A stretch of 64,000 bases of DNA from assembly GCA_963726335.1 (NCBI GenBank), contig CAVSCD010000011.1:787449-851448 (forward strand), in the 5' to 3' direction. This document shows positions 28,087 to 53,906 of the stretch, piece after piece. The translations under genes were made by a program, and so were the position numbers. The stretch's first letter is position 1, and the number at the start of each line of letters is the position of its first letter. Under the pieces are notes generated by a model. It was not told the DNA's origin. It saw nothing but the letters and a program-made list of their open reading frames with translations, and did not search any database. This DNA is from Candidatus Aminicenantes bacterium (GTDB taxonomy: Bacteria; Acidobacteriota; Aminicenantia; Aminicenantales; UBA8522).

Positions 28087-28099
28087 GGAGACACCCTTC

Positions 28100-29215: not shown

Positions 29216-29227
29216 GAGGAGAGCAGC

Positions 29228-30430: not shown

Positions 30431-30436
30431 GGCCGG

Positions 30437-31730: not shown

Positions 31731-31739
31731 GGGCACACC

Positions 31740-33359: not shown

Positions 33360-33896
33360 ATGCTTAAGAAGATGAGAGGTTTCACACTGATCGAGCTGCT
33401 CATCGTCGTCGCCATCATCGGCATTCTGGCAGCCCTGCTGATCCCGAACGCCCTGTCGGCCATCCAGAAGGCCAAGCAGAAAGGCACGATGAAGGACATC
33501 AACTCGATCGCCACGGCCATCACGGATTTCGTGACGGACAAGGGGACGGCTCCGGTTCAGTCCGGTGACCTCGTCGGCGGCAGCCAAATTTACACGGACC
33601 TGAGCGGGTTCTACCTCAAGGTTCTCCCGCAGAACGATCAGTGGGGCTCGCCCTTCAAGGTCTGGTGCGGTTCAGCAGCCGACGGCTCGTACTCCGGAAT
33701 CACGAACAACGCCGCTGATGACTTTGTCGTCGCCTCTATCGGAAGGGACAAAAGCCAGACCGCGATCGCCTTCAACCCCCTGGCTCCCACCACCGCTTAT
33801 TTCGACATCACCGGCATGACCAGCTTCAACCAGGACCTCGTGAATTGGGACGGCTCCTGGGTTCATGCCCCCAAGAGCGCTCAGCTCGGAACCTGA
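33360..33896 (+). CDS. Type IV pilin / GspG-like pseudopilin (prepilin with class III signal peptide)
   Basis: MLKKMRG|FTLIELLIVVAIIGILAA prepilin cleavage/N-methylation motif; GspG-like motif KVLPQNDQWGSPFKVW. Confidence 0.85.
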   Translation: MLKKMRGFTLIELLIVVAIIGILAALLIPNALSAIQKAKQKGTMKDINSIATAITDFVTDKGTAPVQSGDLVGGSQIYTDLSGFYLKVLPQNDQWGSPFKVWCGSAADGSYSGITNNAADDFVVASIGRDKSQTAIAFNPLAPTTAYFDITGMTSFNQDLVNWDGSWVHAPKSAQLGT

Positions 33897-33958: not shown

Positions 33959-33997
33959 ACCCTGAGAGATCGAATCCTCGATGAATCGGGAGTTGCC

Positions 33998-34546
33998 ATG
34001 ACCAGCACGAGACGCGGTTTTACATTGATCGAAATCTTGGTTGTTATTGTGATCCTCGGCATCCTCGCCGCCCTCCTTATTCCTCTGGCCATGGGCTCTA
34101 TTCAGAAGGCCAAGCAAAAAGGCACGCTGAGGGACATCAATTCCATCGCCGTCGCGCTCACGGATTTCGTCACCGATCACGGATCCGCGCCCTTCGGCGT
34201 CAGCGGACCGATCGTGGCCGGCAGCCCCCTGTACACAGCCGTCAGCGGATTCTACCTCAAGGTCCTGCCTCCGAACGACCAGTGGGGAACGCCGTTCAAT
34301 GTGTGGTGCGGGACGGCTGCCGATTCCTCCGGCTATGCCAACGTTACGGGGAATGGCATCGACGATTTTGTGATCTCTTCGTGGGGCCGCAACAAGAGTG
34401 TCGATGCGGTCGCCTTCAACCCGATGCAACCGACAACGGCTTACTTTGAGATCACCGGATTGGCCAGTTTCGACGAAGACCTCATCAGTTGGAACGGCTC
34501 CTGGATCCATGTCCCGAAGAGCGCTCAGCTCGGAGATTCGACCTGA
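33998..34546 (+). CDS. Type IV pilin / GspG-like pseudopilin, paralog of the preceding gene
   Basis: MTSTRRG|FTLIEILVVIVILGILAA; the two pilins share long identical blocks (KAKQKGT, SGFYLKVLP, NDQWG, WNGSW, PKSAQLG) with the same architecture. Confidence 0.85.
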   Translation: MTSTRRGFTLIEILVVIVILGILAALLIPLAMGSIQKAKQKGTLRDINSIAVALTDFVTDHGSAPFGVSGPIVAGSPLYTAVSGFYLKVLPPNDQWGTPFNVWCGTAADSSGYANVTGNGIDDFVISSWGRNKSVDAVAFNPMQPTTAYFEITGLASFDEDLISWNGSWIHVPKSAQLGDST

Positions 34547-38604: not shown

Positions 38605-39345
38605 GTGAGGACCATCTTCCTCGGCCTCGTCTATCTCGTCCTCCTCCTCTTCCTTTCCGTCGCTCTCCTCATTTGCTGGCCGCTCGGCGTGCGCGACCCG
38701 CTCCTGGCGATCGCCAAGTGGGCCATGGACCTGGGACTGAAGATCCTGGGGATCCGGGTCGGGGTCTCGGGACGCGAGGCGATCGATAAGGGATCGCGGT
38801 ACGTTTTCATGGCCAACCATCTCAGCTTTATCGACGGACCGATGCTCTTCCGCTTCATTCCCCAGTCCGTGCGCGTCATTCTCAAGAAGTCGATCTTCCG
38901 GATCCCCGTCCTCGGCCAGGGAATGAGATTCGTGGGATTTGTCCCGGTGGACAGGAAGGGGGTCCGGGGCGGCCGGCAGAGCATCGATGTCGCCGCGCGC
39001 CTGATGCGGGAGCGCGGCTACTCTTACCTGATCTTTCCCGAGGGGACGAGGAGCCGCGACGGGCGGCCCCAGGCTTTTCGCCGGGGCGGGTTCTTCCTGG
39101 CCATCGAGGCCGGCGCCCCGATCGTTCCGGTCAGCATCGCCGGGACCTTCGAGCTCATGCCCAAGGGATCGATGTTCGCCCGGTCAGGCCCGGTTTGCGT
39201 GCGGTTCCACCCGCCCATTTCATCCCAGGGCTTTGGGCCGGCGAATATGGGCGAGCTCATGGACACGGTGAAGGCCGCGATCGAGTCGGGGCTGGCCGAG
39301 CCGGAGCGTCCGGCGGCTAATCTTCGCCCAACACGATCTTCTTGA
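38605..39345 (+). CDS. plsC: 1-acyl-sn-glycerol-3-phosphate acyltransferase
   Basis: 246 aa; acyltransferase motifs ANHLSFIDGPML (HX4D-like) and FPEGTRS. Confidence 0.85.
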   Translation: MRTIFLGLVYLVLLLFLSVALLICWPLGVRDPLLAIAKWAMDLGLKILGIRVGVSGREAIDKGSRYVFMANHLSFIDGPMLFRFIPQSVRVILKKSIFRIPVLGQGMRFVGFVPVDRKGVRGGRQSIDVAARLMRERGYSYLIFPEGTRSRDGRPQAFRRGGFFLAIEAGAPIVPVSIAGTFELMPKGSMFARSGPVCVRFHPPISSQGFGPANMGELMDTVKAAIESGLAEPERPAANLRPTRSS

Positions 39346-41659
39346 TCTCGGCCGCGCCCGCCGCCCCGCTGTTGAAGAGATAACAGGCCGTCGAGTCGAG
39401 CAGCCGGCCGAAGAAACCCTTCTGAAGCTCCAGCCGGTCTTCGCTCGCGAACAGCAAATGGGGATTGTAATACGGCTGGGGTTTGGCGGGGCTGAGGCTC
39501 TTCCTGGCGCCCGCCGCTTCGCCCGCCTCGAGGATCCGAAGGGCCTCGTCCTTCTTCAGCCGCACCGCGGCCGGAGAGATCGCATCGTTCCTCAGGATGA
39601 ATAGCCAGGCGAGCTCGGTCCGCTTGACGTGGCCCGCCTTGCCGCCGATCCACGCCGGGTCGAGCATGGCGTGAGCGCCCTTGGAAGCGCGGTAGCAGTA
39701 GGGAGAACCCCTGTCCAGGCGGCAGTCATCGAGCCTCAGGCAGCCGGCGTCCTGGCAGTCTTCTTTGTGGATGATAATATTTTCGCACCGGCTGGCGTCG
39801 AAGAGCGGAGCCAGCTGCGGGAACGACTCGACGGTGTTGGTCGGAAGATAAAGCTTCCGCTCGACGCATTCGGCCAGTGCCCGTCCCCCGCCGAACCGCA
39901 CCAGGACGATGTCGTTGCTCTGGAGCCGGAACCGGCGGTCGCCGAGGAGCTCGAAGAACAGTTCGGTCTTGTTTGTTCCGGCGGGCCCGACGAGCACCAG
40001 GCCTTTGCCGCCCGCGTCCGCCGACATGCCCCGGATGCCGTGAACGCCGAACAGGCGCTCTCCCGCGTCGAGGACCAGGCCGAGCGCCAGGCTCCGGAGC
40101 GGGCCGTAGTTATCGGCGTTGACGATGACGCCGGTCTTCGTCTCCGAGTTGTAGAAGGCGCGGGGCTCCCGCCCGGGGATCCCGTCCACGGCGAAGATGA
40201 TGCCGTGCGGCTCCAGGTCGGCTTCGAGCTGCGCCGGATACCAGTTCTCCACCCAGAAGTCGTAGAGATGGGGGACGTTCGTCCGGAGCTGGACGATGAC
40301 GCCGGAGATGTTGGCGTTCCACTCGTAATAGTTTTCGTGGCTGAGGTGGCTTTCCATCTCGGCGACGAGCGCGTCTCTCAGCTTGACGGTGGTCGAGGAA
40401 TCCACCGGCACCTGTTTTTTGACCCGGGTGACGGCGTTCTGCAGCGCGACCCGCTTCACGCTCTTGGGTGTCTTCAGCCGGGAGACGGCCTCGATGATCC
40501 GGTCCATCCCTTTTTCCAGGTTGGCCATCGAGGTCGCGGTCGACAGCCGGATGTGGGCGTCGGCCCCGAAGGAGTCACCCGGGACGATGGCCACCCGGGC
40601 CTCCTTCAGGAGGTAGTAGGCCATGCCGTAGGAGTTCCGGATCAGTGTGCCGTTGGCTTCCTTATCGTAGTATTGCGAGACGTTGGGGAAGAGGTAGAAC
40701 GCGCCCTGGGGTTTGAAACAGGAGATGTTGGGGATGGCGCTCAGGCGCATATGGCAGTAATTGCGGCGGCGCTGGAACTCGGAGATCATCCGGGAGATCT
40801 CGTGCTGCGGGCCGCTCAGGGCTTCCAGGCTCGCCTGCTGCGAGATCGAGCAGGCGTTCGAGGTTGAGTGGCTCTGGATCTTGCTCATCCCGTTGATCAC
40901 CTCCGCGGGCCCGAGGGCGTAGCCGATCCGCCAGCCTGTCATAGAGTAGGATTTGGAGACGCCGTTAATCAGAATGGTTTTCTTTTTGATCTCCTCGCCC
41001 AGGGAGGCGAAGCTGACGTACGGGAAATCGTCGTAGATGAGCTTGCCGTAGATCTCGTCGGCGATGACGTAGATGTCCTCGCCGCGGATCACCTCGGCCA
41101 GGGCCTCGAGCTGGGACTTGTTGTAGGCCGCGCCCGTCGGGTTGGACGGATTGTTGAGAATGAGGGCCTTGGTGGCGGGGTTGATCGCGGCTTTCAAGTC
41201 GTCGGGAGAGAGGAGAAAACCGTTCTCCTCCTTGGTGGGGATGAACACGGGTTTACCGCCGGAGATGGCCACCGCCTGTGGATAGGTGACCCAATACGGG
41301 GCGGGGATGATCACCTCCTCGCCTTCGTTGACCAGCGCCTGGATGAGGTTGAAGAGCGAGTTCTTGGCGCCGCTCGAGACGATGACCTGGTTGGGCTCGT
41401 AGCTGAGCCCGTAGTCCTCCTTCATCCGGGCGATGATGGCCTTCTTCAGGGCGGGGATCCCCTCGTTCTCCGTGTACTTCGTGAAGTTCTGCTGGATGGC
41501 GCGGATACCCGCCGCCTTGATGTTTTCCGGTGTGGGGAAGTCGGGCTCGCCCACGCTCAAGTCGACGATGTCGATCCCATCGGCCTTCATGGCCCTGGCC
41601 TTGGCCGAGATCTTGAGCGTCGGCGAGGCGCCGATCTGGTTGACTTTTTCTGAGATCAT
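39317..41659 (-). CDS. Fusion protein: class I/II aspartate-family aminotransferase (N-terminal about 395 aa) + HprK/PEP-carboxykinase-like P-loop domain (C-terminal about 380 aa)
   Basis: N-terminus is a complete fold-type I aminotransferase (SKSYSMTGWRIGY PLP-lysine region); C-terminus has the HprK/PEPCK-like pattern GVHGIRGMSADAGGKGLVLVGPAGTNKTELFFELLGDRRFRLQSNDIV; single uninterrupted 780-aa ORF. Confidence 0.6.
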   Translation of the reverse strand: MISEKVNQIGASPTLKISAKARAMKADGIDIVDLSVGEPDFPTPENIKAAGIRAIQQNFTKYTENEGIPALKKAIIARMKEDYGLSYEPNQVIVSSGAKNSLFNLIQALVNEGEEVIIPAPYWVTYPQAVAISGGKPVFIPTKEENGFLLSPDDLKAAINPATKALILNNPSNPTGAAYNKSQLEALAEVIRGEDIYVIADEIYGKLIYDDFPYVSFASLGEEIKKKTILINGVSKSYSMTGWRIGYALGPAEVINGMSKIQSHSTSNACSISQQASLEALSGPQHEISRMISEFQRRRNYCHMRLSAIPNISCFKPQGAFYLFPNVSQYYDKEANGTLIRNSYGMAYYLLKEARVAIVPGDSFGADAHIRLSTATSMANLEKGMDRIIEAVSRLKTPKSVKRVALQNAVTRVKKQVPVDSSTTVKLRDALVAEMESHLSHENYYEWNANISGVIVQLRTNVPHLYDFWVENWYPAQLEADLEPHGIIFAVDGIPGREPRAFYNSETKTGVIVNADNYGPLRSLALGLVLDAGERLFGVHGIRGMSADAGGKGLVLVGPAGTNKTELFFELLGDRRFRLQSNDIVLVRFGGGRALAECVERKLYLPTNTVESFPQLAPLFDASRCENIIIHKEDCQDAGCLRLDDCRLDRGSPYCYRASKGAHAMLDPAWIGGKAGHVKRTELAWLFILRNDAISPAAVRLKKDEALRILEAGEAAGARKSLSPAKPQPYYNPHLLFASEDRLELQKGFFGRLLDSTACYLFNSGAAGAAEIKKIVLGED

Positions 41660-41683: not shown

Positions 41684-43096
41684 TCAGCCTTCCTTTTTCT
41701 CTTCAGGCGAGAACTTGGCCTGGAGGTACTTCTTGATGTCGATCCCGGTCAGGGATTGGACGACGTCCGGCATCTGGGCCAGCACCTCGGCGACCTGGGC
41801 GGTGATCTTCGTCGTGCCCAGGCTCTTGTCGCCGCCGCCGATGACGACGATCTTATCGACCTTGGAGAGCGGCTCGGAAACGGCCTTGGCCAGTTCGGGG
41901 AGTGTTTTGAGGTACATCTCGAGGACTGCGGCCTGGTTGTATTTTTCCCAAGCCTGGGCTTTCTTCAGCATCGCTTCGGCCTCGGCGAACCCCTTTTTCT
42001 TCATGATCTCGGCTTCGACTTCGCCCTCGACCCTGAGAGCCTCGGCCTTGCCCTTGGCCTCGGCCTGGATGCGGAACTCCTCGGCCTCGGCTTCGGACTT
42101 GATCTGGTACTTGCGGGCGTCGGCCGGCTTGATGACGGACGACTCGAGCTCCTTCTCGCGCCGGGCGATCTCGAGCTCCTCGAGCTTGATGGCCTCGCTC
42201 TTCTCGATGGCCTTCATCGTCGCTTCTTCTTTCTTGATCTGCTGGCTCAGGCGGTAGCGCTCGAGCTCGTAGGAGAAATCGGCCTGGGCCTTTCTCTGAT
42301 TGACCATGACCTGGGATTCGGCCTTCTTGGCCTCGTTTTCCCACTGCGCCTTGGCGATCAAGGCGTCAGCGGCCAGACGGGCGACCTCTCCCTCCTTCCG
42401 CGCTTGGGAGGACTTGACGATGGATTCCTTCTCGGTCTCGGCCTCGGCGATCGAGGCGTCCCGCTTGGCGGCGGCGATCTGGGGCTTGCTCAACGAATCG
42501 AGGAATCCCTGGGCGTCGCTGATATCCTTGAGGGCGAACGAGAGCATGACCAGTCCCATGCGCGACAGGTCCGGCTTGACGGCCTCCGACACCCTGGCCG
42601 AGAATTCCTGGCGGCCGCGGTAGATCTGTTCGACCGTCATCGTTCCCATGACCTCTCTCGTGTGGCCTTCGAGGACGTTCAGGGCGACGTCCCGGATGCC
42701 GTCCTTGCCCACGCCGAGGAATTGCTCGGCGGCCAGGCGGATAGCGAGATCCGAGGAATCGACCTTGACCTGAGCGGTGGCCTCGGCCATGATCGGCACG
42801 CCGCTGTGGGTGAGGACTTCAGGGGTCTTGATGTTCAGGCTGATGACGTCCATCGGCAGGCGGTAGACTGTCTCGGCGAACGGCAGGACGAACGTGCCCC
42901 CGCCCAGCCGGTACCGGTACCCGACCTTGACCTTGGTGCCGTCGGGGCTGACGACCGTCCTCTTCCTGCCGCCGGCGATGATCAGGACCTCGTTGGGGCC
43001 GACCTTTCGGTACTGCTTGGCGAAGACGAATAGAATGAGAGCGATGACGGCGACGATGACGCCGACGAGGATCAGCGTGGAAGTAGGTATCATCAT
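41684..43096 (-). CDS. Flotillin-like SPFH/band-7 protein
   Basis: 470 aa; N-terminal TM anchor, SPFH domain, long E/A/K-rich coiled-coil flotillin region. Confidence 0.85.
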   Translation of the reverse strand: MMIPTSTLILVGVIVAVIALILFVFAKQYRKVGPNEVLIIAGGRKRTVVSPDGTKVKVGYRYRLGGGTFVLPFAETVYRLPMDVISLNIKTPEVLTHSGVPIMAEATAQVKVDSSDLAIRLAAEQFLGVGKDGIRDVALNVLEGHTREVMGTMTVEQIYRGRQEFSARVSEAVKPDLSRMGLVMLSFALKDISDAQGFLDSLSKPQIAAAKRDASIAEAETEKESIVKSSQARKEGEVARLAADALIAKAQWENEAKKAESQVMVNQRKAQADFSYELERYRLSQQIKKEEATMKAIEKSEAIKLEELEIARREKELESSVIKPADARKYQIKSEAEAEEFRIQAEAKGKAEALRVEGEVEAEIMKKKGFAEAEAMLKKAQAWEKYNQAAVLEMYLKTLPELAKAVSEPLSKVDKIVVIGGGDKSLGTTKITAQVAEVLAQMPDVVQSLTGIDIKKYLQAKFSPEEKKEG

Positions 43097-43473
43097 ATCC
43101 TCCTGTGCATCAGCCCCGGACAGAGCGGGGCGAGGCCCGCGGATGGGCGGCCGCGTTCAACCTGAATTTAGGAGAATATTAGCTTTAAGGACTGGTCAAG
43201 TCAAGGCTTCCGCCGTCGTCGGAAGCCGCCTTTCATGAACGGGCCGATTTCTCTCCGGTGAGAACCAGGGAGGCCTTTTGAGGGGGTCATGGTCAGCGCG
43301 GCTTCTCACCCCCGGCGATGAGAAGGTTTAGCAAAACTCACCCCGGCGTTCATCGAGCCCGACGATTGACCGGCGGCCGGGAATGAATGACAATACGGCT
43401 GAAATGGAGAGCCCGCGTTTCAGTGAACGCTGTAAAATGGCCGGCCCCGAGGGATCGACACAAGGAGTCAGGG

Positions 43474-44465
43474 ATGGGGAATAAGACCTTGCTGTCAGTC
43501 GTCGTGCCCATCTGCTCCGAAGAGGAGATCATCCCTGAATTCTATGCGCGGCTGAAGTCCGTGCTCTCGGGACTGAGCCAGGCTCTCGATCATGAGATCA
43601 TCTTCGTCGATGACGGGAGCCGTGACGGATCCATGGACCTCCTCAAGCGCCTAGCGCAAGACGACAAGGATATCCGGGTCATCAGCTTCTCAAGGAACTT
43701 CGGTCACCAGTTCGCCATCACCGCCGGCCTGGACCATGCCTCCGGCGACGCCGCTGTGATCATCGACGGCGACCTCCAGGACCCGCCCGAGGTCATCCCC
43801 CAAATGATCGGCAAATGGAGCGAAGGCTGCAAGGTCGTTTACGGGGTCAGGGAAAAAAGGCGGGGCGAAAACCCGGTCAAGCTCGTGACGGCCAAGCTGT
43901 TCTACAGGCTCATCAGGCTCCTGAGCGACACCGATCTGCCGCTCGACGCAGGGGATTTCAGGCTCCTGGATGCCAAGGTCATCGAGGCTCTTAAAAGATT
44001 CGGGAGGAAAACCGCTACATCAGGGGGCTCGTGAGCTGGGCGGGCTTCCGCCATTGCGGCCTGCCTTACCGGCGGGATCCCCGGTATGCCGGAAAGACGA
44101 AATATACCTTCAAAAAAATGGTCAAGTTCGCCGTCGACGGGATCCTGAGCTTTTCCGACCGCCCGCTCAAGATCACCGCTTATCTTGGGTTCCTGATCAC
44201 GATGGTCTCGTTCTTGGTCGGGCTGAGGATTGCCATCGGCAAGCTCCTCCATCCGGACATGCTCGTCTCCGGCTGGACCTCCATGATCCTGGCCGTGCTG
44301 TTTATCGGCGGCATCCAGCTCGTCTCGCTCGGCATCCTGGGCCTTTATGTCGGCCGCCAATACCGGGAAGTGAAGAGGCGGCCACTCTATATCATCGCCG
44401 AAAAGACGGGTTTTGACGTGGGCCGGCCGCCGGGCAGCCTGGGAGAAGGGCTTGACAGCCGATGA
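43474..44465 (+). pseudogene. GT2 polyprenyl-phosphate sugar synthase (GtrB/ArnC/DPM1-like), interrupted by a -1 frameshift
   Basis: ATG 43474 with SD AAGGAG; N-terminal GT2 domain (LSVVVPICSEEEI...FVDDGSRDGS...DGDLQDPPE) to stop at 44034; continues in another frame (EENRYIRGLVSWAGF..., two C-terminal TM helices) from about 44003 (GGG run). Confidence 0.6.
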
Positions 44466-45305
44466 CCGGATCCGAAGGCCCCCTGATTTCCGTCGGCATT
44501 CCCGCTTTTAATGGCGAGCGCTATATCGGCCGGGCCATCGAATCCGTCTTAGGCCAATCCCACGCCCATTTTGAGCTCGTCATCGTCGACGACCATTCCG
44601 AGCGACAATACGGCCGGCGTTATCAAGGGTTACCCCGACCCGAGGATCAGGGTCATGGAAAATCCGTCACGTTTGGGCCAGATGGGAAACTGGAACAAAA
44701 CCCTTCATGAAGCCAGGGGGACGTACATAAAGCTCCTCCCCCAGGACGACCTCCTCTATCCGACCTGCCTGGAAAGGCAGGTCGAAGCTTTCGCCAAGCC
44801 GGAGAACCAGGGCGTCGCTCTGGTCTGCTGTGCGCGCGACATCATCGACCACTCCGGGCGGGTCATCCTCAGGCGGTCTTTCCGGAGGAGGAAAGGCCGG
44901 CTGGCAGGAGTCAGGGCCGTAAAGGAGAGCATCCGGGCGGGGACTAACCTAATCGGTGAACCGGCCGGGGTCCTCTTCAGGTCCGCGGCCGTCGACAAGG
45001 TCGGCCTCTTTGACGACCGGAATTTCTATGTCATCGACCTGGATTATTGGTGCCGGGCGCTTCTGACCGGCGACCTCTACATCATACCCGAACCGCTGTG
45101 CGCCTTCCGGGTGTCCGGAGGCTCCGCGAGCCTCAGGGTCGCGTCCTCGCAGGACAAGGATTTTCGAAACTTCATCAGGTTCCTGGCCCGGGACGAGCGC
45201 TTTCACCTCACGGGCGTGGATGGCTTCCGGGGCAAGATCAAGGCCTTCGCCAATCGACGGCTCCGGCAGCTCTTCTACAAGATGATCGTGAAGGAAGCGC
45301 GATGA
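44462..45305 (+). pseudogene. GT2 family glycosyltransferase, interrupted by a +1 frameshift
   Basis: ISVGIPAFNGERYIGRAIESVLGQSHAHFELVIVDDHS in frame 2, continuing DNTAGVIKGYPDPRIRVMENPSRLGQMGNWNK... in frame 0 from about 44600. Confidence 0.55.
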
Positions 45306-46747
45306 GCGAGAGGTTCGAGCGGCCGGAGGATATCGCCTTTGTGATCAGCCCCTCGACCTGGTACAAGAGCATGTATCCGACCGGGATCTTATGCTTAGCC
45401 AATTATCTGGAGGCGAAAGGCTTCCGGAACGTCATCCTGGATGCGGGCCTGTCTCCGAAGAGGCTTTGCCAAGCCGAGAGGGAAGCGCTCATCTTGAGCG
45501 CCCTTCGGTCGATCAAGCCGAAGGTAGTCTGTCTGTCCAGCACGCATAAGGAATTCGAGGAGATCATCAGGCTCAGCATGGGGACGCGGGCCTTCGATGA
45601 GCAGGCCGCCGTCATCGTCGGCGGTTCCCAGGCGACGTATCGCCCGACGGACTTCCTGGATAACGGCGTGGACTTTGTTTGCGTGGGAGAGGGAGAAAGG
45701 ACCCTCCATGAATTCGTCGTCCAAACCGCGGCCGGAACCCGCCGCTGGCATGAGGTGGCCGGGCTGGCCTGGAAGAACGGCGGCCGGATCACGGTGAACT
45801 CGCCCAGGGAACTCATGACCGAGGAGGAGCTTCAGACCGACGATTTTTCCGCCTACGAGAAGATCGATAAGAGATATTTTGCCGTCAACGTAGAGACCAT
45901 CAGGGGACTGCCGCTGTCCGGAGCGCTGCTTCTGACCACCAGGGGGTGTCCGTTCGATTGCTCCTTCTGCGGCTGCGGTTCGATCTTCGGCCGCCGGCTG
46001 AGGTTTCGGCCGCTCGACAGTATCAGACGGGAGGTCTCCCATCTCCAGACCGAACACGGCGTCGAGGGGATCTGGATCGTCGACGATACTTTTACGGTCA
46101 ACAGGAAGCACGCGTTGGCCGTCGCCGGGATCCTTAAAGAGCACGGCATCCTGTGGGGCTGCCAATCCAGAGTCGACACGATCGATGAGTCCCTGGCGGC
46201 GGCGCTCAAAGACTGCGGCTGCATCCAGATGGATTTCGGGGTGGAGTCGGGAAGCCAGCGGATCCTCAACGAGATCATCAACAAACGGACGACGACCCAG
46301 CAGGTCAAGGACGCCTTTGCGCTGATGAAAAAATACAGGATCCGGTCCCTGGCCAATTTCATGATCGGGTTGCCCACGGAGACCGAGCAGGATCTCCTCG
46401 CTACGAAGGAGCTCGCCGAGGCCATCGATGCCGACGTCTACGTGTTCTCCATCGCGACCCCACTGCCCGGCACCCGGCTCTACGAGATGGTCGGAGAAGA
46501 GATCTCGCCCTTCGAGTATTCTCTCCTGGACTGGAACGGAAGCGCCCTGACCGAGAGGCTCAACAAGTCCGGGATCAAAGACGTCGTCGGAGAGCGGCGG
46601 GAACTCAAGAACAAGTACTTGGTGAAATCGATCTTCAAGTCGGCCTTCTCCACGAGGAGCCTCGGTTTCGTCCTGATGAGGAAGGGCCGCCTGAAGAGGT
46701 TGAAGGCGGTCTTGGATTTCTTCCGACGGACCCTGGGGAACGGGTGA
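45302..46747 (+). CDS. B12-binding domain radical SAM protein (class B radical SAM family)
   Basis: N-terminal cobalamin-binding-like domain, radical SAM CxxxCxxC (RGCPFDCSFCGCGS); start ATG overlaps upstream stop (ATGA). Confidence 0.8.
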   Translation: MSERFERPEDIAFVISPSTWYKSMYPTGILCLANYLEAKGFRNVILDAGLSPKRLCQAEREALILSALRSIKPKVVCLSSTHKEFEEIIRLSMGTRAFDEQAAVIVGGSQATYRPTDFLDNGVDFVCVGEGERTLHEFVVQTAAGTRRWHEVAGLAWKNGGRITVNSPRELMTEEELQTDDFSAYEKIDKRYFAVNVETIRGLPLSGALLLTTRGCPFDCSFCGCGSIFGRRLRFRPLDSIRREVSHLQTEHGVEGIWIVDDTFTVNRKHALAVAGILKEHGILWGCQSRVDTIDESLAAALKDCGCIQMDFGVESGSQRILNEIINKRTTTQQVKDAFALMKKYRIRSLANFMIGLPTETEQDLLATKELAEAIDADVYVFSIATPLPGTRLYEMVGEEISPFEYSLLDWNGSALTERLNKSGIKDVVGERRELKNKYLVKSIFKSAFSTRSLGFVLMRKGRLKRLKAVLDFFRRTLGNG

Positions 46748-46784
46748 CCGTCTTTGGCCCCGGGATCGGAAGGAGAAGAGAGTG

Positions 46785-47450
46785 ATGTCCCCTGTGCCCG
46801 CAGAGCCGCCAACGTATGACGAAAAATACTATCACGACCTTTACATCAAACCCGCCTTCACGCGCCTCGGCCTGAGCAAGCTGTACTATCTTTGGATCGC
46901 CTTTTTCTGTATCAAGCGGGCGGCTGGCCTGAAGCGGGGGGCGCGCGTCCTTGATTTCGGTTGCGGGATAGGCAACCTGGTCTGGGCCTTGAGGAAGATC
47001 GGATTGGAGGCTTATGGGATTGAACCCTCGGAGCCGGCCCGGCGGTACAGCCGCGCTCCGCGGCATTGCCGTTATGAAGACTCCCGCCGGCTGCCTTTTG
47101 AAAACAGGTCCTTTGATCTCGTTTACAGCCACGAGGTCTTGGAGCATTTATCACCCGGCGATTTGCGGCCCGCCCTCCACGAGATCTCGCGGGTCAGCCG
47201 AGGGAGGACCCTCCACATGATCTGCGTCAAGGAGCGGGGGGCATTCGTCAGCCAGGAACCGACGCATCTGATTATTGAGTCCGAGTCATGGTGGAAAGGG
47301 CTGTTTGAAAACCAGGGCTACAAGGTCAGGACGGGGAATCCTGTGTATTTTTTCCCTTTCATTCCCTACTTGTTCGCTCGGACGCTGAATGTCCTCGCCA
47401 TCGGGAAGGGCTATTTCCTGCTGGACGAGCGCCGTGGCGGGAAGCTCTAG
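46785..47450 (+). CDS. Class I SAM-dependent methyltransferase
   Basis: VLDFGCGIGNL glycine-rich SAM-binding motif, Methyltransf_11-like; SD GGAAGGAG upstream. Confidence 0.75.
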   Translation: MSPVPAEPPTYDEKYYHDLYIKPAFTRLGLSKLYYLWIAFFCIKRAAGLKRGARVLDFGCGIGNLVWALRKIGLEAYGIEPSEPARRYSRAPRHCRYEDSRRLPFENRSFDLVYSHEVLEHLSPGDLRPALHEISRVSRGRTLHMICVKERGAFVSQEPTHLIIESESWWKGLFENQGYKVRTGNPVYFFPFIPYLFARTLNVLAIGKGYFLLDERRGGKL

Positions 47451-49204
47451 AGCGGGGTCAGCTCGAAGTAGGGAGCCTGCGCGGAATTGCGCAGCCGGAA
47501 GAATTGACGGTCTGGAAATCGTTCCCGCAGTTTCTGTTCGACATCGGGAATGTCGTGCAGGATCAAGATCTTGTCGGTCAAGTCCGGCCTGGCCCGGCGC
47601 CACTCGAATACCCAGCTCCCGATCGACCTGAAATACCCGTTGGCCAGCCAGAGGGACCCGAACTGAGGGGCCAGAATCACGGCTTTGTCCACTTTTCTCT
47701 CGAGGATGCTGTTATCGATGAAGCCGTAAATGTAGCTTTGGATCGAAGCCTGACGGTTGAGGGCCCGGGATTGCCAGAGATTGAAGACCCCGAGACCGAG
47801 AGCCAGGGTGCAGACGAGAACGCTGGCCGGTACCAGGAAGGAGATGTTCCCTTTTTTTAGCCAGTTCTTTATCCGGAACAGGCCGAAGACGGAGATGATG
47901 ATCAGGGGGGCCAGGCACTCGGAATAGTGGATCGGGCCGACGGCGTGAAGTCCCTGGTTATCATGGAATAGCCCCATGCTGAGGACCGCTCCGACGCCCA
48001 AACCAAGGAGCTTGGTGAACTTGTCTGTCAGGAGCCCGGAGACGATCAATAGGATGCCTAAAGGCCCCAGGAACCAGATCGCGAGCATGAACAGGTTATA
48101 GCTTGAATTAGCGCCGAACCTGTTCCACAGCGATCCCGTCGCCAGCGTCTTGGCGGGGCCTTCAGCGGAGAAGCGGGGCGGGAACAATGGATCTCCGGTG
48201 ATAAGAAAATTGTAGAGGAAGAAAAGCGCGACGGGAATCAGGCATCCGGCGAGAAGTCCGAAAACGGGCTTGACCGACCGGCCTGTCTTCGAAAACGCTC
48301 GCCAGACGGCATGCGCCGCGAGCGGCAGCAAGAGGAAGCCGGTCTCAATAGGCCGGACGCAGAAGCTAACCCCGGCCGCCAGTCCGGTCAGGGCCCAGAG
48401 CCACCAGCTCTGTTTTTCCTCAGCGAGGAAATACAGAAGCAGTGTCATGCTGATCGTCGCCCTTGAGAGCAGGTGGGCGTGAGTTGTCGTCGAGAGCGTA
48501 AAGGCCATGGGGGAGAAGAGGGTGAGCGCGCCGGCGATCAGCCCATATCCGGGTGACAGCCGCCGGCCCAGGATGACCGCCAGGCAGAAAGCGGGAACGG
48601 CGGCGGCCAGGGCGAAAATCCACGGCCCCGTCCCGGTGAATTCGGCGATCGCCCAGGCCGCCAGCACGCCGGGCCAATCAAAGCTCGTAATCAAGCCGTC
48701 TTTGAAGTACAAAAAGAGCTTGGAAAAGGCCTCATAGGGTTGGGGGGCGGGCACGCCGAGCTTTCCCAGGGCCAGGACCTGGCCGCCGAATTGAGTCGCA
48801 TACTCGTCGTCGGTAAAGGGGAAGTCAAGCATGACCAGCGAATGGAGTATCCGGGCCAAGGCGGCGAGCAACACGAACCCGACAATCAGCGCCGCCGCCT
48901 TCTCGCCCCGGCTCAGGCTCTCGACCCGGCCCCATAGCTGCCTCAGACGGGGGCCCAGAACAGGGCTCAGCGCGTACCCGATCAGGCAGGCTCCCGGGAA
49001 CAGTAGAAGCGCGTGGGCCAGCCAGAAATAGGCTTCTCCCGGCGATGAATAGGTGAACGGTGGATGAAAGGTGACGCTGAGCCTGGTGGCCGTCTCGGCC
49101 AACCCAAAAAACGAAAGGAAAAGCAACGATCCGAACACCAAGGCGACGGACCGCTCCTTCCCGAGGCTGAAGAGAGAGAGCTCTCTTGCCTTGTTATTAT
49201 CCAT
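47447..49204 (-). CDS. GT-C fold membrane glycosyltransferase, ArnT/PMT-like (GT39/GT83-like)
   Basis: 585 aa, about 12 TM segments; loop-1 acidic motif FPFTDDEYATQF after TM1 as in ArnT/PMT. Confidence 0.7.
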   Translation of the reverse strand: MDNNKARELSLFSLGKERSVALVFGSLLFLSFFGLAETATRLSVTFHPPFTYSSPGEAYFWLAHALLLFPGACLIGYALSPVLGPRLRQLWGRVESLSRGEKAAALIVGFVLLAALARILHSLVMLDFPFTDDEYATQFGGQVLALGKLGVPAPQPYEAFSKLFLYFKDGLITSFDWPGVLAAWAIAEFTGTGPWIFALAAAVPAFCLAVILGRRLSPGYGLIAGALTLFSPMAFTLSTTTHAHLLSRATISMTLLLYFLAEEKQSWWLWALTGLAAGVSFCVRPIETGFLLLPLAAHAVWRAFSKTGRSVKPVFGLLAGCLIPVALFFLYNFLITGDPLFPPRFSAEGPAKTLATGSLWNRFGANSSYNLFMLAIWFLGPLGILLIVSGLLTDKFTKLLGLGVGAVLSMGLFHDNQGLHAVGPIHYSECLAPLIIISVFGLFRIKNWLKKGNISFLVPASVLVCTLALGLGVFNLWQSRALNRQASIQSYIYGFIDNSILERKVDKAVILAPQFGSLWLANGYFRSIGSWVFEWRRARPDLTDKILILHDIPDVEQKLRERFPDRQFFRLRNSAQAPYFELTPL

Positions 49205-49270
49205 GCCGCTTTATTTTAGGCTAAGCGCAATTCTTGTCAACAAAAATGGTCCTCGCACGAGACCGGCGGC

Positions 49271-49957
49271 CTAATCAAAAAACCTGAACCGCACGATGTG
49301 GAAAAGCGCGGCGACGCCGTCCTTCCAGCCGATCTTCTTGCCCTCCGAGTAATCGCGGCCCGCATAAGAAATCGGCACCTCATAGACCCGGGAGTTGAGC
49401 TTGGCGACCTTGAGCGTGATCTCGGGCTCGACCCCGAACCGCTTGGACTTAAGCCGGATCTTCTGGAGGACTTCCCGCCGGAAGACCTTGTAGCAGGTCT
49501 CCATGTCGGTCAGGTTCAGGTTGGACGCCATGTTGGAGAGCGTCGTCAGGAGGCGGTTGCCGACGGAATGCCAGAAATAGAGGACCCGGTGCGGGCCGCC
49601 CAGGAAGCGGCTTCCGTAGACGACGTCCGCCCGGCCCTCCAGGATGGGGGCCAGGAGCTTCGGGTACTCGCGCGGGTCATATTCCAGGTCGGCGTCCTGG
49701 ACGAGCACGATATCTCCGCCGGCCTCCGAAAACCCGGTCCGCAGGGCGCCGCCTTTTCCTGTATTCTTCTCATGGAGGACGACCCTGACATCTTCGGCGG
49801 ACAGCCGCCTGAGAATGTCGCGGGTGCCGTCGGTCGAACCGTCGTCGACCACCACGATCTCTTTCTCCAGGCCGACGTCCACCGCCTGGACGCGGCGGAT
49901 GATCTCCTCGACGGTGGACTTTTCGTTGTAAACCGGGATCACGACGGAGAGCTTCAT
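49271..49957 (-). CDS. GT2 polyprenyl-phosphate sugar synthase (DPM1/ArnC/RgtE-like, soluble-type)
   Basis: 228 aa; [19 protein letters not shown]...[11 protein letters not shown]...[14 protein letters not shown]2 motifs. Confidence 0.8.
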
Positions 49958-49981
49958 GAGCGCGGCGGCCCCTCTATCAGG

Positions 49982-50920
49982 CTATGCGGATTTCAGCTTA
50001 TCGCGAAAATAGGGGATGGTCTTCGTCAGCCCCTCCTCGAGCGCGACCCGGGGCTCCCAGCCCAGCTTCTCCCTGGCCAGGGAGATATCCGGGCAGCGTT
50101 TGACCGGGTCGTCGGAGGGCAGCGGCCGGTGCTCGATCCCGGAACGGCTGCCGGTGAGCCGCAGCACCTTCTCCGCCAGCTCGAGGACGGTGAACTCGCC
50201 CGGGTTCCCGATGTTGACGGGGCCGTGGAAATCCTCGACGTTCATCAGCCGGACCAGGCCGTCGATGAGGTCGGAGTAGAAACCGAAAGACCGCGTCTGG
50301 GTGCCGTCGCCGTAGACGGTCAGGCTTTCCCCGCGCAGCGCCTGGACGATGAAGTTGCTGACCACCCGGCCGTCGTCCACGGCCATCCGCGGCCCGTAGG
50401 TGTTGAAGATCCTGGCGATCCGGGTGTCGACACGGTTCTGCCGGTGGTAATCCCTCATCAGCGTCTCGGCGACGCGCTTCCCCTCGTCGTAGCAGCTCCG
50501 CACGCCGATGGGGTTCACGTTGCCCCAGTACGACTCGTTCTGGGGATGGACCTTGGCGTCGCCGTACACCTCGGATGACGACGTCAGGAGGATCCGGGCC
50601 TTGATGCGCTTGGCCAGCCCGAGCATGTTGATCGTGCCCATGACGCTGGTCTTGACGGTCTTGATGGGGTTCCGCTGGTAGTGGATCGGCGAGGCCGGGC
50701 AGGCCAGGTGGTAGATCTGGTCCACCTCGATGAACAGCGGGTGGATGACGTCGTGGCGGATCAGCTCGAAATAGGAGTGGTCGAGAAGGTGCCGGATGTT
50801 GTCCTTGCTTCCCGAGAAAAAATTGTCGATGCAGACGACGTCATTGCCTTGGCCCAGGAGGTACTCGGCGAGATGGCTGCCGAGAAACCCCGCCCCGCCC
50901 GTTATCAGGATCCTCTTCAC
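49982..50920 (-). CDS. UDP-glucuronate decarboxylase (UDP-xylose synthase, UXS) of the extended SDR family
   Basis: [44 protein letters not shown]; these motifs match UXS rather than GlcA 4-epimerase; GTG start overlaps rph stop (GTGA). Confidence 0.85.
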
Positions 50921-51672
50921 GGCTCGCTCCTCTCCCCGTAGGCCATGAACATCATGCTTTTTTTCTTGAGCACGGTCTTCTGCATCTGGATGAGCTCCTT
51001 GATCCCTTTGTCGGCGAGCTTCAGAAGGTCGCCCAGGTCCTTCCTGGAGAAGGGCTCCCGCTCCGCGGTCGCCTGGACCTCGACGAGCTGGCCGCCGTCG
51101 GTCTCGACCACGTTCATGTCGATCTCGGCCTGGGAATCCTCGGTGTATTCGAGGTCGAGGAGAAGCTCGCCGCGGACGACGCCGACGCTCGCGCCGGCGA
51201 CAAGATGCCGGAGCGGCATCTTGCGGATGATGCCGCGATCGAGAAGCTTCTTCAAGGCCAGCGCCAGGGCCACGCAGCCGACCGTCACCGAGGCCGTCCG
51301 CGTTCCGCCGTCGGCCTGGATCACGTCGCAGTCCACCATGATCGTGCGCTCCCCGAGCGCCTCCATATCGGTGACCGCCCTCAAGGAGCGGCCGATCAGC
51401 CGCTGGATCTCCTGGGTGCGCCCGGACATCCTTCCCTGGGTCCTTTCGCGCGCGCTCCTCTTTTCGGTGGCGCAGGGCAGCATGGCGTACTCGGCCGTGA
51501 TCCAGCCCGTGCCCCTGCCCTTGAGGAACGGCGGGGCCTTTTCGTCCACCGTGGCCGAGGCGGCGACCCGGGTCTTGCCGACCTCGATGAAGGCGGAGCC
51601 GTCGGCGTAATCAAAATAGTCCGTGTGGATCCGGACCGGCCTCAATTCGTCGATGGCGCGTTTTTCCCTCAT
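50917..51672 (-). CDS. rph: Ribonuclease PH
   Basis: 251 aa; RNase PH core ([16 protein letters not shown]...). Confidence 0.9.
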
Positions 51673-51683
51673 GAGCGTATACC

Positions 51684-52625
51684 TCAGGCTTTGTTTTGGC
51701 GTCCGGCCCCGGCTGAGCGCGGCGTGTCGGGCGGCCGGGTTTTCCAGCGGTTGTGGAACCAGAACCAGAGGCCCGGGTTTTGCCGGATTTCCGACTCGAT
51801 CATCTTAGTGCAATGCCGGGTGATTTTCAACACGTCCTCATCCAGGCTGCCGGAGAGCTCGACTTCGACGGGCGGGCCGATCCTGATTGTGTATGAGAAC
51901 GAGGGTGTCGGGTAGCAGAAGATCGGCAGCAGGGGCGAGCGGGCGCGCGCGTAAAACGACCCCACGGCGGGCGTCGTGGCCGCCGGCCGGCCGAAAAAGT
52001 CGACGAACACGGCCTGGCTGCGGAGGACGTTCTGGTCCATCAGGATGGCGACAGCTTCGTTATGGCGGAGGGCCTGGAGGACGGGCTTCGCGGCCTGGAA
52101 TTTCGAGATGACGCGTGCCCCCAGCGATTTCCTTAACCGGAGGAGCCACCGCTCGAGCACCCGGCTGTCCAGGGGCCTGGCGACGACGCTCAGCCGGGCG
52201 AAGCGCGAAACGGCGAGCGACGCGACCTCCCAATTGCCGAAATGAGCGGAGAAGAGGATGGCCCCCCGGCCTTTCTCGAGGGCCAAGCGAAGATGGTCAC
52301 CGCCCTCAAGGGACAAGAGCCGCAGCCTTTTGCGGTGGCCGAGATGTGTCCATTTAACGGTGTCGGCCATGACCCGGCCGAATGTTATAAATGATTCCCG
52401 GGCGATCCGTTGCCGTTCTCCGGGCGTGAGGTCCTTGCCGAGTGCTGTCTGGAGGTTGGCGAGGACGAGATCCCGGTGCCGCCTGTCGGCCCGGAAAAGG
52501 AACGCGCCCAACAGCCGGCCCAATCCCAGGCAGGCTTTCCTCGGCAGGACGAAGAACAGCGCTTGGATGGCGCCGAAAACGCAGAAGATCAGCAGGTCGA
52601 CGGTTTTCGACGTTCTTTTGGGCAT
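51684..52625 (-). CDS. lpxL: Lipid A biosynthesis late acyltransferase (LpxL/HtrB family)
   Basis: 313 aa; N-terminal TM, lysophospholipid acyltransferase core with FSAHFGNWE motif. Confidence 0.75.
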   Translation of the reverse strand: MPKRTSKTVDLLIFCVFGAIQALFFVLPRKACLGLGRLLGAFLFRADRRHRDLVLANLQTALGKDLTPGERQRIARESFITFGRVMADTVKWTHLGHRKRLRLLSLEGGDHLRLALEKGRGAILFSAHFGNWEVASLAVSRFARLSVVARPLDSRVLERWLLRLRKSLGARVISKFQAAKPVLQALRHNEAVAILMDQNVLRSQAVFVDFFGRPAATTPAVGSFYARARSPLLPIFCYPTPSFSYTIRIGPPVEVELSGSLDEDVLKITRHCTKMIESEIRQNPGLWFWFHNRWKTRPPDTPRSAGAGRQNKA

Positions 52626-53647
52626 CAGGACCGCGGAAATCTCCGGAGGGCCGCCTCCAGCAGTTCGAAAAACCCGGGGTCGATCGACAGCCCGATCTCG
52701 AGGACATAGACCGGAAGGCCGGTGAAGCGCGTGGACCGATCAGCGAGCTTCACGGCGTCCTTCGCCGTCGTTATCGCCGAGGCGGCGCCGGCCGTGCGCG
52801 CGGTCCGCAGGATCTTTTCGATGGACGCCCGGGGATAGGCATGATGGTCGGGGAATGTCAGGAAAGCCGCGGGCTTGATGCCCTGGCTTTCGAGCGATCG
52901 GAGAAACCGTTCGGGCCGGGCGATCCCGCAAAAGGCGAGAACGGGAAGGTCATTAAGGTTCTCCGTCGATAACGGGGCATCGCTTCCCACAAGGTGAAAC
53001 CCGCGGGCCACAACTTCATAGGGGAGGGGCCGGCCGGGGAAAACGGAGGGGATCCCGATCTCGCGGACTTCTGCGAGATCTTCTTTTTCGACCAGGATGA
53101 CGCCGGCGCGCCTCAAGCCTGAGGCGGACTCGCGGAGCACGGCTTTCCGGGACGGCGAATAGACCACGATATCGAGGTCGCGGCCAAGCCGCCTGTGCTG
53201 AAAGCCGTCATCCAGGACGGCCACGTCGAACCCCATCTCCAGCGCTCTCTGGCACGACGCCAGGCGGTTCTTTCCGACAAATACGCCCGCTCCAGGGAGG
53301 GCCTTGGCCGCCATGAACGGCTCGTCACCGCTGTCCCTCCAGGTGCCGGCGGTCCGGGTCCCGTCCGAGATCATGCCGCCCGTCTTTTCCCAGCGGCCCC
53401 GATACCCCCTGGACACGAGCGCGGGCTTCCGTCCATGAGCCGCAAGCCAGGAGATGACCTCGATGGCCAGGGGCGTCTTGCCCGTCCCGCCCAGGCTGAT
53501 ATTGCCCACGCTGACGACCGACAGGGGCGCGATCCCGGGTTTGAAGATGCCCTTGTCATAGAGGATGTTCTTGATGCCGGATACGAAACGGGAGATCAGG
53601 GAATACAGCCGCAAGATAAGGTCCATGCGATCCGGACTATACAACAT
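52625..53647 (-). CDS. lpxK: Tetraacyldisaccharide 4'-kinase
   Basis: Start at MLYSPDRMDL; P-loop SVGNISLGGTGKTP; stop overlaps lpxL start by 1 nt (TGATG). Confidence 0.85.
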   Translation of the reverse strand: MLYSPDRMDLILRLYSLISRFVSGIKNILYDKGIFKPGIAPLSVVSVGNISLGGTGKTPLAIEVISWLAAHGRKPALVSRGYRGRWEKTGGMISDGTRTAGTWRDSGDEPFMAAKALPGAGVFVGKNRLASCQRALEMGFDVAVLDDGFQHRRLGRDLDIVVYSPSRKAVLRESASGLRRAGVILVEKEDLAEVREIGIPSVFPGRPLPYEVVARGFHLVGSDAPLSTENLNDLPVLAFCGIARPERFLRSLESQGIKPAAFLTFPDHHAYPRASIEKILRTARTAGAASAITTAKDAVKLADRSTRFTGLPVYVLEIGLSIDPGFFELLEAALRRFPRS

Positions 53648-53906
53648 CCCCCCTCCATTTTTCAATTTCGGGACAGGCCCCGGCCTGTGCCTAACGCGTG
53701 GAAACAAAGGGGGGGGGCATGGCGCCAGTCCCTGCGCGCCCGGAGCGACGGGGCCCCCTTTCCGCTGGGAGGGCGCTAACCATCGTTGATGGGTGAGGCG
53801 AGAGGACGCACGGCGACGCGCCATGACTGGACCCTCCTGACCTTGGCTTTACTTGACCCGGCCGTTTCCATATAATGACCCTGACTTTTCAACGAGGAGA
53901 AGGGCG

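Follow-up and report, generated by a model that had tools for sequence, protein, structure and literature searches.

Organization of the six-gene region

The stretch of DNA analyzed here (the window) comprises 64,000 nucleotides (nt) of a Candidatus Aminicenantes bacterium (GenBank assembly GCA_963726335.1, contig CAVSCD010000011.1, positions 787,449 to 851,448). Those close homologues of its proteins that are named all come from Candidatus Aminicenantes, which agrees with an uncultured member of this class of Acidobacteriota as the source. On its minus strand, six open reading frames (ORFs) encode LpxK, an LpxL-type acyltransferase, RNase PH, a UDP-glucuronate decarboxylase (UXS), a small family 2 glycosyltransferase (GT2) and a GT-C glycosyltransferase. 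The original prediction, made from the sequence of the window, regarded these genes as one operon by which a pentose is attached to lipid A via a polyprenyl phosphate. All six ORFs were found where the prediction had placed them, and the spacings hold as well: lpxK and lpxL overlap by 1 nt and rph and UXS by 4 nt, while gaps of 11 nt (lpxL-rph), 24 nt (UXS-GT2) and 66 nt (GT2-GT-C) separate the remaining genes.

52625-53626, minus strand: lpxK, tetraacyldisaccharide 4'-kinase (Pfam LpxK, 245 bits; TIGR00682, 162 bits, cutoff 92)
51684-52625, minus strand: LpxL/HtrB-family lipid A late acyltransferase, 313 amino acids (Pfam Lip_A_acyltrans, 190 bits)
50917-51672, minus strand: rph, RNase PH, 251 amino acids (TIGR01966, 336 bits, cutoff 141.5)
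49982-50920, minus strand: UXS, UDP-glucuronate decarboxylase, 312 amino acids (human UXS1 structures, E=2e-128)
49271-49957, minus strand: small soluble DPM1/PpgS/AglJ-like GT2 (GT2s), 228 amino acids (Pfam Glycos_transf_2, 140 bits)
47447-49204, minus strand: GT-C glycosyltransferase of an uncharacterized family, 585 amino acids (PMT_2, 31.8 bits, cutoff 26.1)

With NF006270, the LpxL-family protein reached 182 bits, which is below the equivalog cutoff of 248. The start of lpxK has to be revised. Instead of the predicted position 53647, the ATG at 53626 (MDLILRL..., 333 amino acids) is most likely the start codon, since homologues comprise 332 to 336 amino acids and a conserved promoter-like element covers the ATG at 53647. 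The motifs YDEGKR and FTDDEY named in the prediction are present, but the third one, VDNFFSGSK, was misread, as the UXS protein contains IDNFFSGSK. As predicted, neither an aminotransferase nor a formyltransferase gene belongs to the array.

Gene order and promoters

Comparison with related genomes suggests that the six genes are probably two juxtaposed units and not parts of a single pathway. The genes lpxK-lpxL-rph-UXS-GT2 occur in identical order and orientation on three independent Aminicenantes contigs (L074, L075 and L076), whose LpxK, UXS and GT2 proteins are 53 to 76%, 83 to 92% and 78 to 86% identical to those of the window, respectively. The order is kept even where the identity of LpxK amounts to only 53%. 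In every Aminicenantes relative examined, UXS and the small GT2 gene are adjacent, in some of them with overlapping stop and start codons. The gene for the 585-residue GT-C, which follows the array in the window, is absent from this position in all three contigs. In L075 and L076, a flotillin gene and a gene for a class I aminotransferase of 780 amino acids lie downstream of the array, followed further on by a divergent pair of SIS and acyltransferase genes and by a gene for a different PMT_2 protein of 650 amino acids. L074 has other genes at this place.

Two promoter-like elements were identified in the region:

53636-53665, minus strand: element of the lpxK array, TTGAAA-N18-TATAGT with an extended -10 region (TGTATAGT), detected by a consensus scan
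49213-49240, minus strand: element of the GT-C gene, TTGACA-N16-TAAAAT, matching 11 of 12 consensus positions

The motif TGTATAGTCCG is also located approximately 8 to 10 nt 5' of the lpxK ATG in L074, L075 and L076. Thus, lpxK-lpxL-rph-UXS-GT2 is a conserved Aminicenantes housekeeping array with its own conserved promoter. The second element resides in the 66-nt spacer between GT2 and GT-C, ends 8 nt before the GT-C start codon and is the best sigma-70-type match of the region. TTGACA-N16-(G)ATAAAAT was found 8 to 11 nt 5' of the GT-C start in L072, L015, L004 and L031, where the upstream genes differ, and a partial element is visible in L010 and L035. Because the promoter is conserved in orthologues with different upstream genes, the GT-C gene appears to be started independently, and there is good evidence that it is transcribed from its own start as a near-leaderless mRNA. 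Since, in addition, the array is not followed by GT-C in the relatives, a single six-gene operon is not supported.

A hairpin in the spacer (49264-49248) was considered as a terminator between GT2 and GT-C. It is weak (-6.1 kcal/mol, z = 0.67) and not conserved in relatives, and was not used. The short distance of 8 to 11 nt between both promoter-like elements and their start codons suggests that leaderless or near-leaderless mRNAs occur in Aminicenantes.

The GT-C module

Beyond the 3' end of the GT-C gene, a second group of genes was identified on the opposite strand:

46782-47450, plus strand: class I S-adenosylmethionine (SAM) methyltransferase (Methyltransf_11/23/25), convergent with GT-C
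45302-46747, plus strand: B12-binding radical SAM enzyme (Pfam B12-binding and Radical_SAM)
44462-45305, plus strand: second GT2 (GT2b), apparently frameshifted near 44600 (change of frame in the tblastn alignment to the intact orthologue of L072)
43471-44465, plus strand: PgfS/GtrB/ArnC-like membrane GT2 (tblastn with the intact L072 orthologue, two frames, 76 to 79% identity)

In relatives, the GT-C gene is part of a module with genes for a class I methyltransferase, a B12-binding radical SAM enzyme, a GT2 of 280 amino acids and a membrane GT2 of 330 to 344 amino acids, to which some loci add a GT4, an LPG_synthase_TM or a GtrA-like gene. This module, whose genes are co-directional or convergent, was seen in L004, L006 to L012, L015, L048 and L072. 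A methyltransferase gene adjoins GT-C in L001, L002, L004, L006, L015 and L072, and the B12 radical SAM gene is kept in the module of Aminicenantes relatives. The window holds the same set on the plus strand (43471-47450), convergent with GT-C; a GtrA-like gene was not found in it. The GT-C and methyltransferase genes overlap tail to tail by 4 nt (47447-47450), leaving no room for a terminator, and are 9 nt apart in L072.

That GT-C is not tied to the array can be seen from two relatives with closely similar GT-C proteins. In L072 (GT-C 76% identical), a GtrA-like gene and an ArnC-like cluster are located upstream of GT-C and no UXS-GT2 pair is found beside it. In L015 (75% identical), flotillin, aminotransferase, SIS and acyltransferase genes follow GT2. 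After them come GT-C and the genes for the methyltransferase, the radical SAM enzyme, GT2b, an ArnC-like GT2 and GtrA, and finally those for GT-Cs with tetratricopeptide repeats (TPR) and for pilins. The flotillin (41684-43096) and aminotransferase (39317-41659) genes are present in the window too, where they lie beyond the GT-C module as seen from the array. Compared to L015, the flotillin-aminotransferase-acyltransferase block and the GT-C module have traded places, and by this exchange GT-C was brought next to the small GT2 gene in the window.

In the membrane GT2 gene, the change of frame corresponds to an apparent loss of 1 nt in a G run near 43996. This frameshift and the one near 44600 are likely errors of the long-read assembly, because the first switch occurs in a G run and a related long-read metagenome-assembled genome, L015, has a broken GT-C gene. 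The intact membrane GT2 of L072 scored 314 bits with PgfS and 170 bits with ArnC, both values being below the cutoffs. As a side observation, the class I/II aminotransferase match of the 780-residue protein (39317-41659, minus strand) is confined to residues 30 to 388. The C-terminal part of approximately 390 amino acids has no Pfam match and contains the Walker-A-like sequence GPAGTNKT; the fusion is kept in L075 and L076 beside the flotillin gene.

UXS and the donor sugar of the small GT2

The short-chain dehydrogenase/reductase (SDR) of the array aligns with human UXS1 over residues 2 to 310 (431 bits, 64% identity, E=2e-128), while epimerases reached at most 136 bits and ArnA approximately 82 bits. 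The extended-SDR motifs GxxGxxG, S/T-x-E and YxxxK are present, SSEVYG and YDEGK are conserved, and the motifs align with identical positions in structure 4gll. The protein is far closer to UXS than to ArnA or the epimerases, which upholds the predicted UXS type; a grouping with epimerases or dehydratases, by which the prediction would have been refuted, was not observed. It is a genuine UXS beyond reasonable doubt, and by homology it is expected to convert UDP-glucuronate (UDP-GlcA) to UDP-xylose.

For the small GT2, the best solved relatives include the dolichyl-phosphate mannose synthase (DPMS) of P. furiosus (5mlz, 4e-27, residues 1 to 223) and ArnC (1e-21). The protein covers positions 4 to 218 of the 226 positions of the PpgS model and shows a full-length match to AglJ as well; its DAD motif (D88-D90) is invariant. 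However, its scores are below all curated NCBIfam cutoffs (AglJ 135 versus 325, ArnC 84 versus 529, PpgS 79 versus 370), and by sequence it is assigned to an uncharacterized subfamily of the DPM1/ArnC/GtrB/PpgS-type GT2 enzymes. C-terminal transmembrane helices like those of ArnC and GtrB were not found, as the protein of 228 amino acids stops just past the catalytic domain. It resembles in this respect the soluble PpgS or human DPM1 type, and the prediction of a soluble DPM1/ArnC-type enzyme agrees with these data.

The small GT2 is highly conserved, within the Aminicenantes (78 to 95% identity) and 58 to 69% identical to its homologues in other lineages. Among the 150 top-ranking cluster representatives of this family (P0241-P0390), roughly every second one is a fusion protein. 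A GtrA_DPMS_TM domain is fused to five of 78 long representatives and a PMT/PMT_2 GT-C domain to three (P0294, P0296 and P0375), the GT2 portions of these fusions being 52 to 62% identical to the small GT2. Such fusions support a role as polyprenyl-phosphate (polyprenyl-P) sugar synthase, which is the most likely function of the small GT2 as far as can be judged from its homologues. In 36 of the 150 representatives, about a quarter, the fused domain is a class I SAM methyltransferase, a widespread architecture. Although GT-C always has a methyltransferase gene as a neighbor, a link of this kind to the methyltransferase of the window was rejected as not specific: the similarity to the fused domains is only generic (at best 36% over 95 amino acids), and the methyltransferases that adjoin GT-C in different lineages show no clear orthology to each other.

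Outside the Aminicenantes, ORF clustering of 80 metagenome loci revealed no recurrent neighbor of the small GT2 gene, the commonest one being present in six loci. Genes for UDP-GlcA-derived sugars were searched for in the 46 metagenome loci whose flanking sequence extends over 4 kb or more, and were detected near the GT2 homologue in three unrelated loci. In L145, the genes for GT2, UGD and UXS are adjacent, tightly packed and co-directional; in L149, UXS and UGD are divergent from the GT2 gene and approximately 1.9 kb away; and in L082, UGD, a TviC-like UDP-GlcA-4-epimerase and the GT2 homologue are arranged directly in series. By an informal estimate, three loci exceed the rough chance expectation of less than one. 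In the other 43 loci no such gene was found. UDP-xylose is a plausible, though unproven, donor of the small GT2. In the literature searched on polyprenyl-, undecaprenyl- and dolichyl-P-xylose, a polyprenyl-P-xylose derived from UDP-xylose was not found, the only related compound being undecaprenyl-phosphate xylofuranose (undP-Xylf) made by the phosphoribosyl pyrophosphate (PRPP) route.

It is possible, if doubtful, that UXS and the small GT2 are not functionally linked at all, UXS feeding cytoplasmic glycosyltransferases for exopolysaccharide or O-antigen and the small GT2 acting as a housekeeping polyprenyl-P-hexose synthase within an inherited gene order. This would be in accordance with the mixture of unrelated functions in the array, where rph lies between lpxL and UXS, with the restriction of the order to one class, in which synteny by descent is expected, and with the absence of a recurrent neighbor elsewhere (at most six of 80 loci). 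It is less compatible with the three independent loci that pair a GT2 homologue with UDP-GlcA-derived sugar genes, more than the rough chance expectation, and with a gene order that persists at only 53% LpxK identity.

The GT-C protein and its family

An AlphaFold2 model of the 585-residue GT-C (mean predicted local distance difference test score 91.7) shows a confident GT-C fold. The subfamily could not be identified from the fold, as Foldseek template modeling scores did not exceed 0.53, and neither the sequence nor a profile of 62 members revealed a solved GT-C relative. In the first loop, residues P129, D132, D133 and E134 are invariant; the modeled GT-C fold would accordingly carry acidic side chains in its first periplasmic loop. 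ArnT was not matched at E values up to 10, either by phmmer or by the 62-sequence profile, and the score with LA_3751/LA_3752 was 54 bits (cutoff 200); NCBIfam does not contain an ArnT model. Of the predicted ArnT/PMT-like assignment, the PMT_2 match above cutoff, the fold and the FTDDEY motif stand, while membership in ArnT by sequence could not be substantiated.

To see with which genes the family is associated, 64 GT-C loci, one genome per species, were scanned by tblastn for neighbors within 10 kb. The loci belong to Aminicenantes, Methylomirabilota/Rokubacteria, Blastocatellia, Thermoanaerobaculia, Myxococcota, Bradymonadales and other lineages. An ArnC-like GT2 was present in 36 loci and a DegT-type aminotransferase in 25, with WbqC in several. 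The DegT partner of Corallococcus is an equivalog of dTDP-4-amino-4,6-dideoxygalactose transaminase (563 bits), and in L038 a true RmlB gene adjoins GT-C. UXS-like SDRs near GT-C genes (23 to 31% identity) were considered as ArnA-like decarboxylases and discarded, NCBIfam placing them with GalE, RmlB and LegB. The DegT and SDR partners point to 4-amino-6-deoxyhexoses as sugars of the family, which would usually work with these in lipid-linked form or with other sugars made by a membrane GT2 of its own. An orthologue of the small GT2 was found in a single locus (L015), and a true UXS, lpxK, lpxL or rph gene in none of the 64.

These results bear directly on the proposed one-operon pathway, in which UXS would provide UDP-xylose, the small GT2 would form polyprenyl-P-xylose and GT-C would transfer the xylose onto lipid A or the lipopolysaccharide core. 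The tight spacing of six genes on one strand, a genuine UXS, a GT2 of the polyprenyl-P type and the conserved adjacency of UXS-GT2 to lpxK-lpxL in Aminicenantes are all features that such a pathway would have. Nevertheless, it is very unlikely. GT-C has its own conserved promoter and is not located at this position in L074 to L076 or in L072, none of the 64 GT-C loci has UXS or lpx genes nearby, and a partner set of the ArnT or Rgt type is missing. Moreover, RNase PH is encoded within the array, so that adjacency there does not imply a common function. As adjacency is all that connects GT-C with lipid A, the predicted target is not supported, and a lipid A xylose pathway is altogether only weakly supported.

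Type IV pilus genes

At lower coordinates of the window, a complete set of type IV pilus genes is located on the plus strand:

26359-32828, plus strand: pilB, pilT, pilC, pilS-like kinase and pilR (T2SSE and MshEN, T2SSE, T2SSF, HisKA/HATPase, Response_reg and Sigma54_activat)
33360-33896 and 33995-34546, plus strand: two tandem type IV pilin/GspG-like genes (N_methyl motif GFTLIE; TIGR02532 above cutoff)
34620-36398, plus strand: TfpW-like GT-C with C-terminal TPR (GT-C2), 592 amino acids (PMT_2 and TPR_14)

The pilin and GT-C2 genes lie 11 to 13 kb from the six-gene region, and in both the window and L015 the pil cluster neighbors the lpx-UXS-GT2 array. GT-C2 starts 74 nt past the second pilin gene, contains FLWDDKYF near its N-terminus and is homologous (E 2e-21) to a TPR protein of 592 amino acids encoded near the Corallococcus GT-C. 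Adjacent to it, a membrane protein of 684 amino acids (36407-38461, minus strand, convergent with GT-C2) has an N-terminal IWDD, a TPR-like C-terminus and no Pfam match. It is kept in L157 (weak PMT_2 and TPR matches), L158 and L015 and looks like a second TPR-type GT-C; an orthology with the 650-residue PMT_2 protein of L075 and L076 was dismissed, as BLASTP revealed no similarity. The arrangement of pilBTCSR, pilins, GT-C2 and the 684-residue protein is conserved in the Aminicenantes loci L157 and L158 (GT-C2 identity 50 to 64%).

TfpW of P. aeruginosa is encoded directly downstream of pilA; a DDx motif is located in the first of its periplasmic loops, and the protein ends with a TPR domain. 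It glycosylates pilin from a polyprenyl-P-pentose donor, polyprenyl-P-D-arabinofuranose (Araf), which is made from PRPP via DprE1/E2 homologues. GT-C2 shares position and architecture with TfpW as published (location after the pilins, multiple N-terminal transmembrane segments, DD motif, TPR). On the other hand, the TfpW donor does not originate from a nucleotide sugar via a GT2, and the 585-residue GT-C has no TPR domain.

The GT-C family itself recurs near pilus genes. In Corallococcus exercitus, C. carmarthensis, C. terminator and a Myxococcus species (L001/L026, L021, L028 and L030), GT-C is located between pilR and pilA. The island, which lies between pilR and pilGHI-pilA, contains genes for GT-C, an ArnC-like GT2, a DegT transaminase, WbqC, two methyltransferases, a 592-residue TPR GT-C-like protein and YfhO, and may serve to glycosylate the pilin of these cultivable myxobacteria. 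Pilin or pil genes are also found at most 10 kb from GT-C in the Aminicenantes loci L009, L010 and L015 as well as in L070 and L071. Since the family recurs near pilin genes and a TfpW-like GT-C2 follows the pilins directly, pilin or another periplasmic or surface glycoconjugate is a better supported acceptor of GT-C than lipid A, the support being proximity. Glycosylation of pilin or another protein had been named in the original prediction as an alternative, and by the pil-linked GT-C loci it has gained more comparative support than lipid A.

Three intact Aminicenantes pilins, two from the window and one from L009, end in Ser or Thr (...SAQLGT, ...SAQLGDST and ...KTNVGS), an anecdotal observation. 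These ends resemble the serine at the C-terminus of P. aeruginosa group I pilins, where glycosylation takes place. In several lineages, a sugar-nucleotide cluster recurs near pilin or GT-C genes (L158, 12156-17424; L074, 17072-20684; L002, 15348-21767). It encodes an SDR, an NTP-transferase, a GHMP kinase, a SIS protein, a HAD phosphatase, a TAL_FSA aldolase and a methyltransferase and might provide a donor of an unusual heptose or deoxysugar.

Whether the pentose could be destined for the pilus has to be considered separately. According to this idea, the small GT2 would synthesize polyprenyl-P-xylose and GT-C, GT-C2 or the 684-residue protein would transfer the sugar to pilins or another protein. 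The conserved UXS-GT2 adjacency with codons overlapping in some relatives, the UDP-GlcA genes accompanying GT2 homologues in L145, L149 and L082, the TfpW-like position and architecture of GT-C2 together with the pentose donor of TfpW, and the vicinity of the pil cluster to the array in the window and L015 are consistent with it. Nonetheless it is unlikely, since 43 of the 46 metagenome loci have no UDP-GlcA-derived sugar gene near the GT2 homologue, the identity of 58 to 69% across lineages suggests one common donor that need not be xylose, and a UDP-xylose-derived polyprenyl-P-xylose did not appear in the literature searched. The combined assumption that UXS and the DPM1-like GT2 produce polyprenyl-P-xylose from UDP-xylose and that adjacent pilus-linked GT-Cs xylosylate pilin or another surface glycoconjugate is to be judged quite unlikely.

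Comparison with known systems

With the Arn pathway, the genes of the window share the logic of a pentose nucleotide derived from UDP-GlcA, the loading of polyprenyl phosphate by a GT2 and the transfer of the sugar by a GT-C at the periplasmic face. Of the proteins with solved structures, moreover, ArnC is one of the closest to the small GT2 as well as to the membrane GT2 of the module. Aminotransferase, formyltransferase and deformylase are missing from the set of the window, the SDR is of the UXS type, the small GT2 lacks the two C-terminal transmembrane helices of ArnC, ArnT is undetectable by sequence or profile, and GT-C, which starts from a promoter of its own, shows no linkage to UXS or lpx genes in relatives.

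In the Rhizobium RgtE/RgtA-D system, a UDP-uronate-derived donor (undecaprenyl-P-galacturonic acid) is loaded by a GT2, and GT-C enzymes transfer the sugar to lipid A and the core. The logic of RgtE is mirrored in L082 by the series of UGD, 4-epimerase-like SDR and GT2. The window, by contrast, encodes a decarboxylase and no 4-epimerase.

The layout of synthase, flippase candidate and GT-C is shared with three-component systems (GtrA/GtrB/Gtr-type GT-C, PpgS/Rv3779 and PgfS/PgfM). A GtrA-like flippase candidate is present in L072 and L015, and the membrane GT2 of the module is closest to PgfS (314 bits). What separates the module from these systems are the B12 radical SAM enzyme and the SAM methyltransferase, two additional partners. 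In the Citrobacter system for undecaprenyl-phosphate ribofuranose (undP-Ribf) and undP-Xylf, undP-Xylf is made from PRPP with the participation of an epimerase (PMC11127046).

Interpretation of the locus

The arrangement of the six genes is probably best understood as the juxtaposition of two units. The first one, lpxK-lpxL-rph-UXS-GT2, would be driven by the conserved near-leaderless promoter 5' of lpxK. LpxK and the LpxL-type acyltransferase act in lipid A synthesis, and RNase PH is an unrelated housekeeping enzyme. The small GT2 would most likely load polyprenyl phosphate with a single sugar taken from a nucleotide sugar, on the cytoplasmic side of the inner membrane. The second unit would consist of GT-C in a movable module with the SAM methyltransferase, the B12 radical SAM enzyme, the second GT2 and the PgfS/ArnC-like membrane GT2. 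The latter is the expected supplier of the polyprenyl-P-sugar, which GT-C would transfer at the periplasmic face. In this genome, the block exchange would have put the module directly after the small GT2 gene.

Several points weigh against this interpretation. The weak hairpin in the 66-nt spacer makes read-through from GT2 into GT-C possible, and both promoters are consensus matches supported by conservation alone. In case the frameshifts near 43996 and 44600 are real, GT-C might depend on the small GT2 as its sole functional donor synthase. The position of GT-C directly after UXS-GT2 in this genome might reflect a lineage-specific functional coupling. With regard to the acceptor, pil genes are missing within 10 kb of several GT-C loci, and the link to pilins is one of proximity only.

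The analysis gives little support to a lipid A modification system. Should the small GT2 use UDP-xylose, its product would be a novel pentose donor linked to a lipid, and the three-component systems of periplasmic glycosylation would gain another branch. Together with the xylosylation of a pilin or surface glycoconjugate, if true, this would be a route from a nucleoside diphosphate pentose to a lipid-linked pentose, unlike the PRPP-based routes to Araf, Ribf and Xylf. The 585-residue GT-C, for its part, represents a widespread uncharacterized family occurring in Aminicenantes, Methylomirabilota, Myxococcota and other lineages. Its partners (ArnC/PgfS-like GT2, 4-aminosugar enzymes and methylases) and its recurrent proximity to pilins make a role in pilus glycosylation testable in cultivable Corallococcus and Myxococcus strains.

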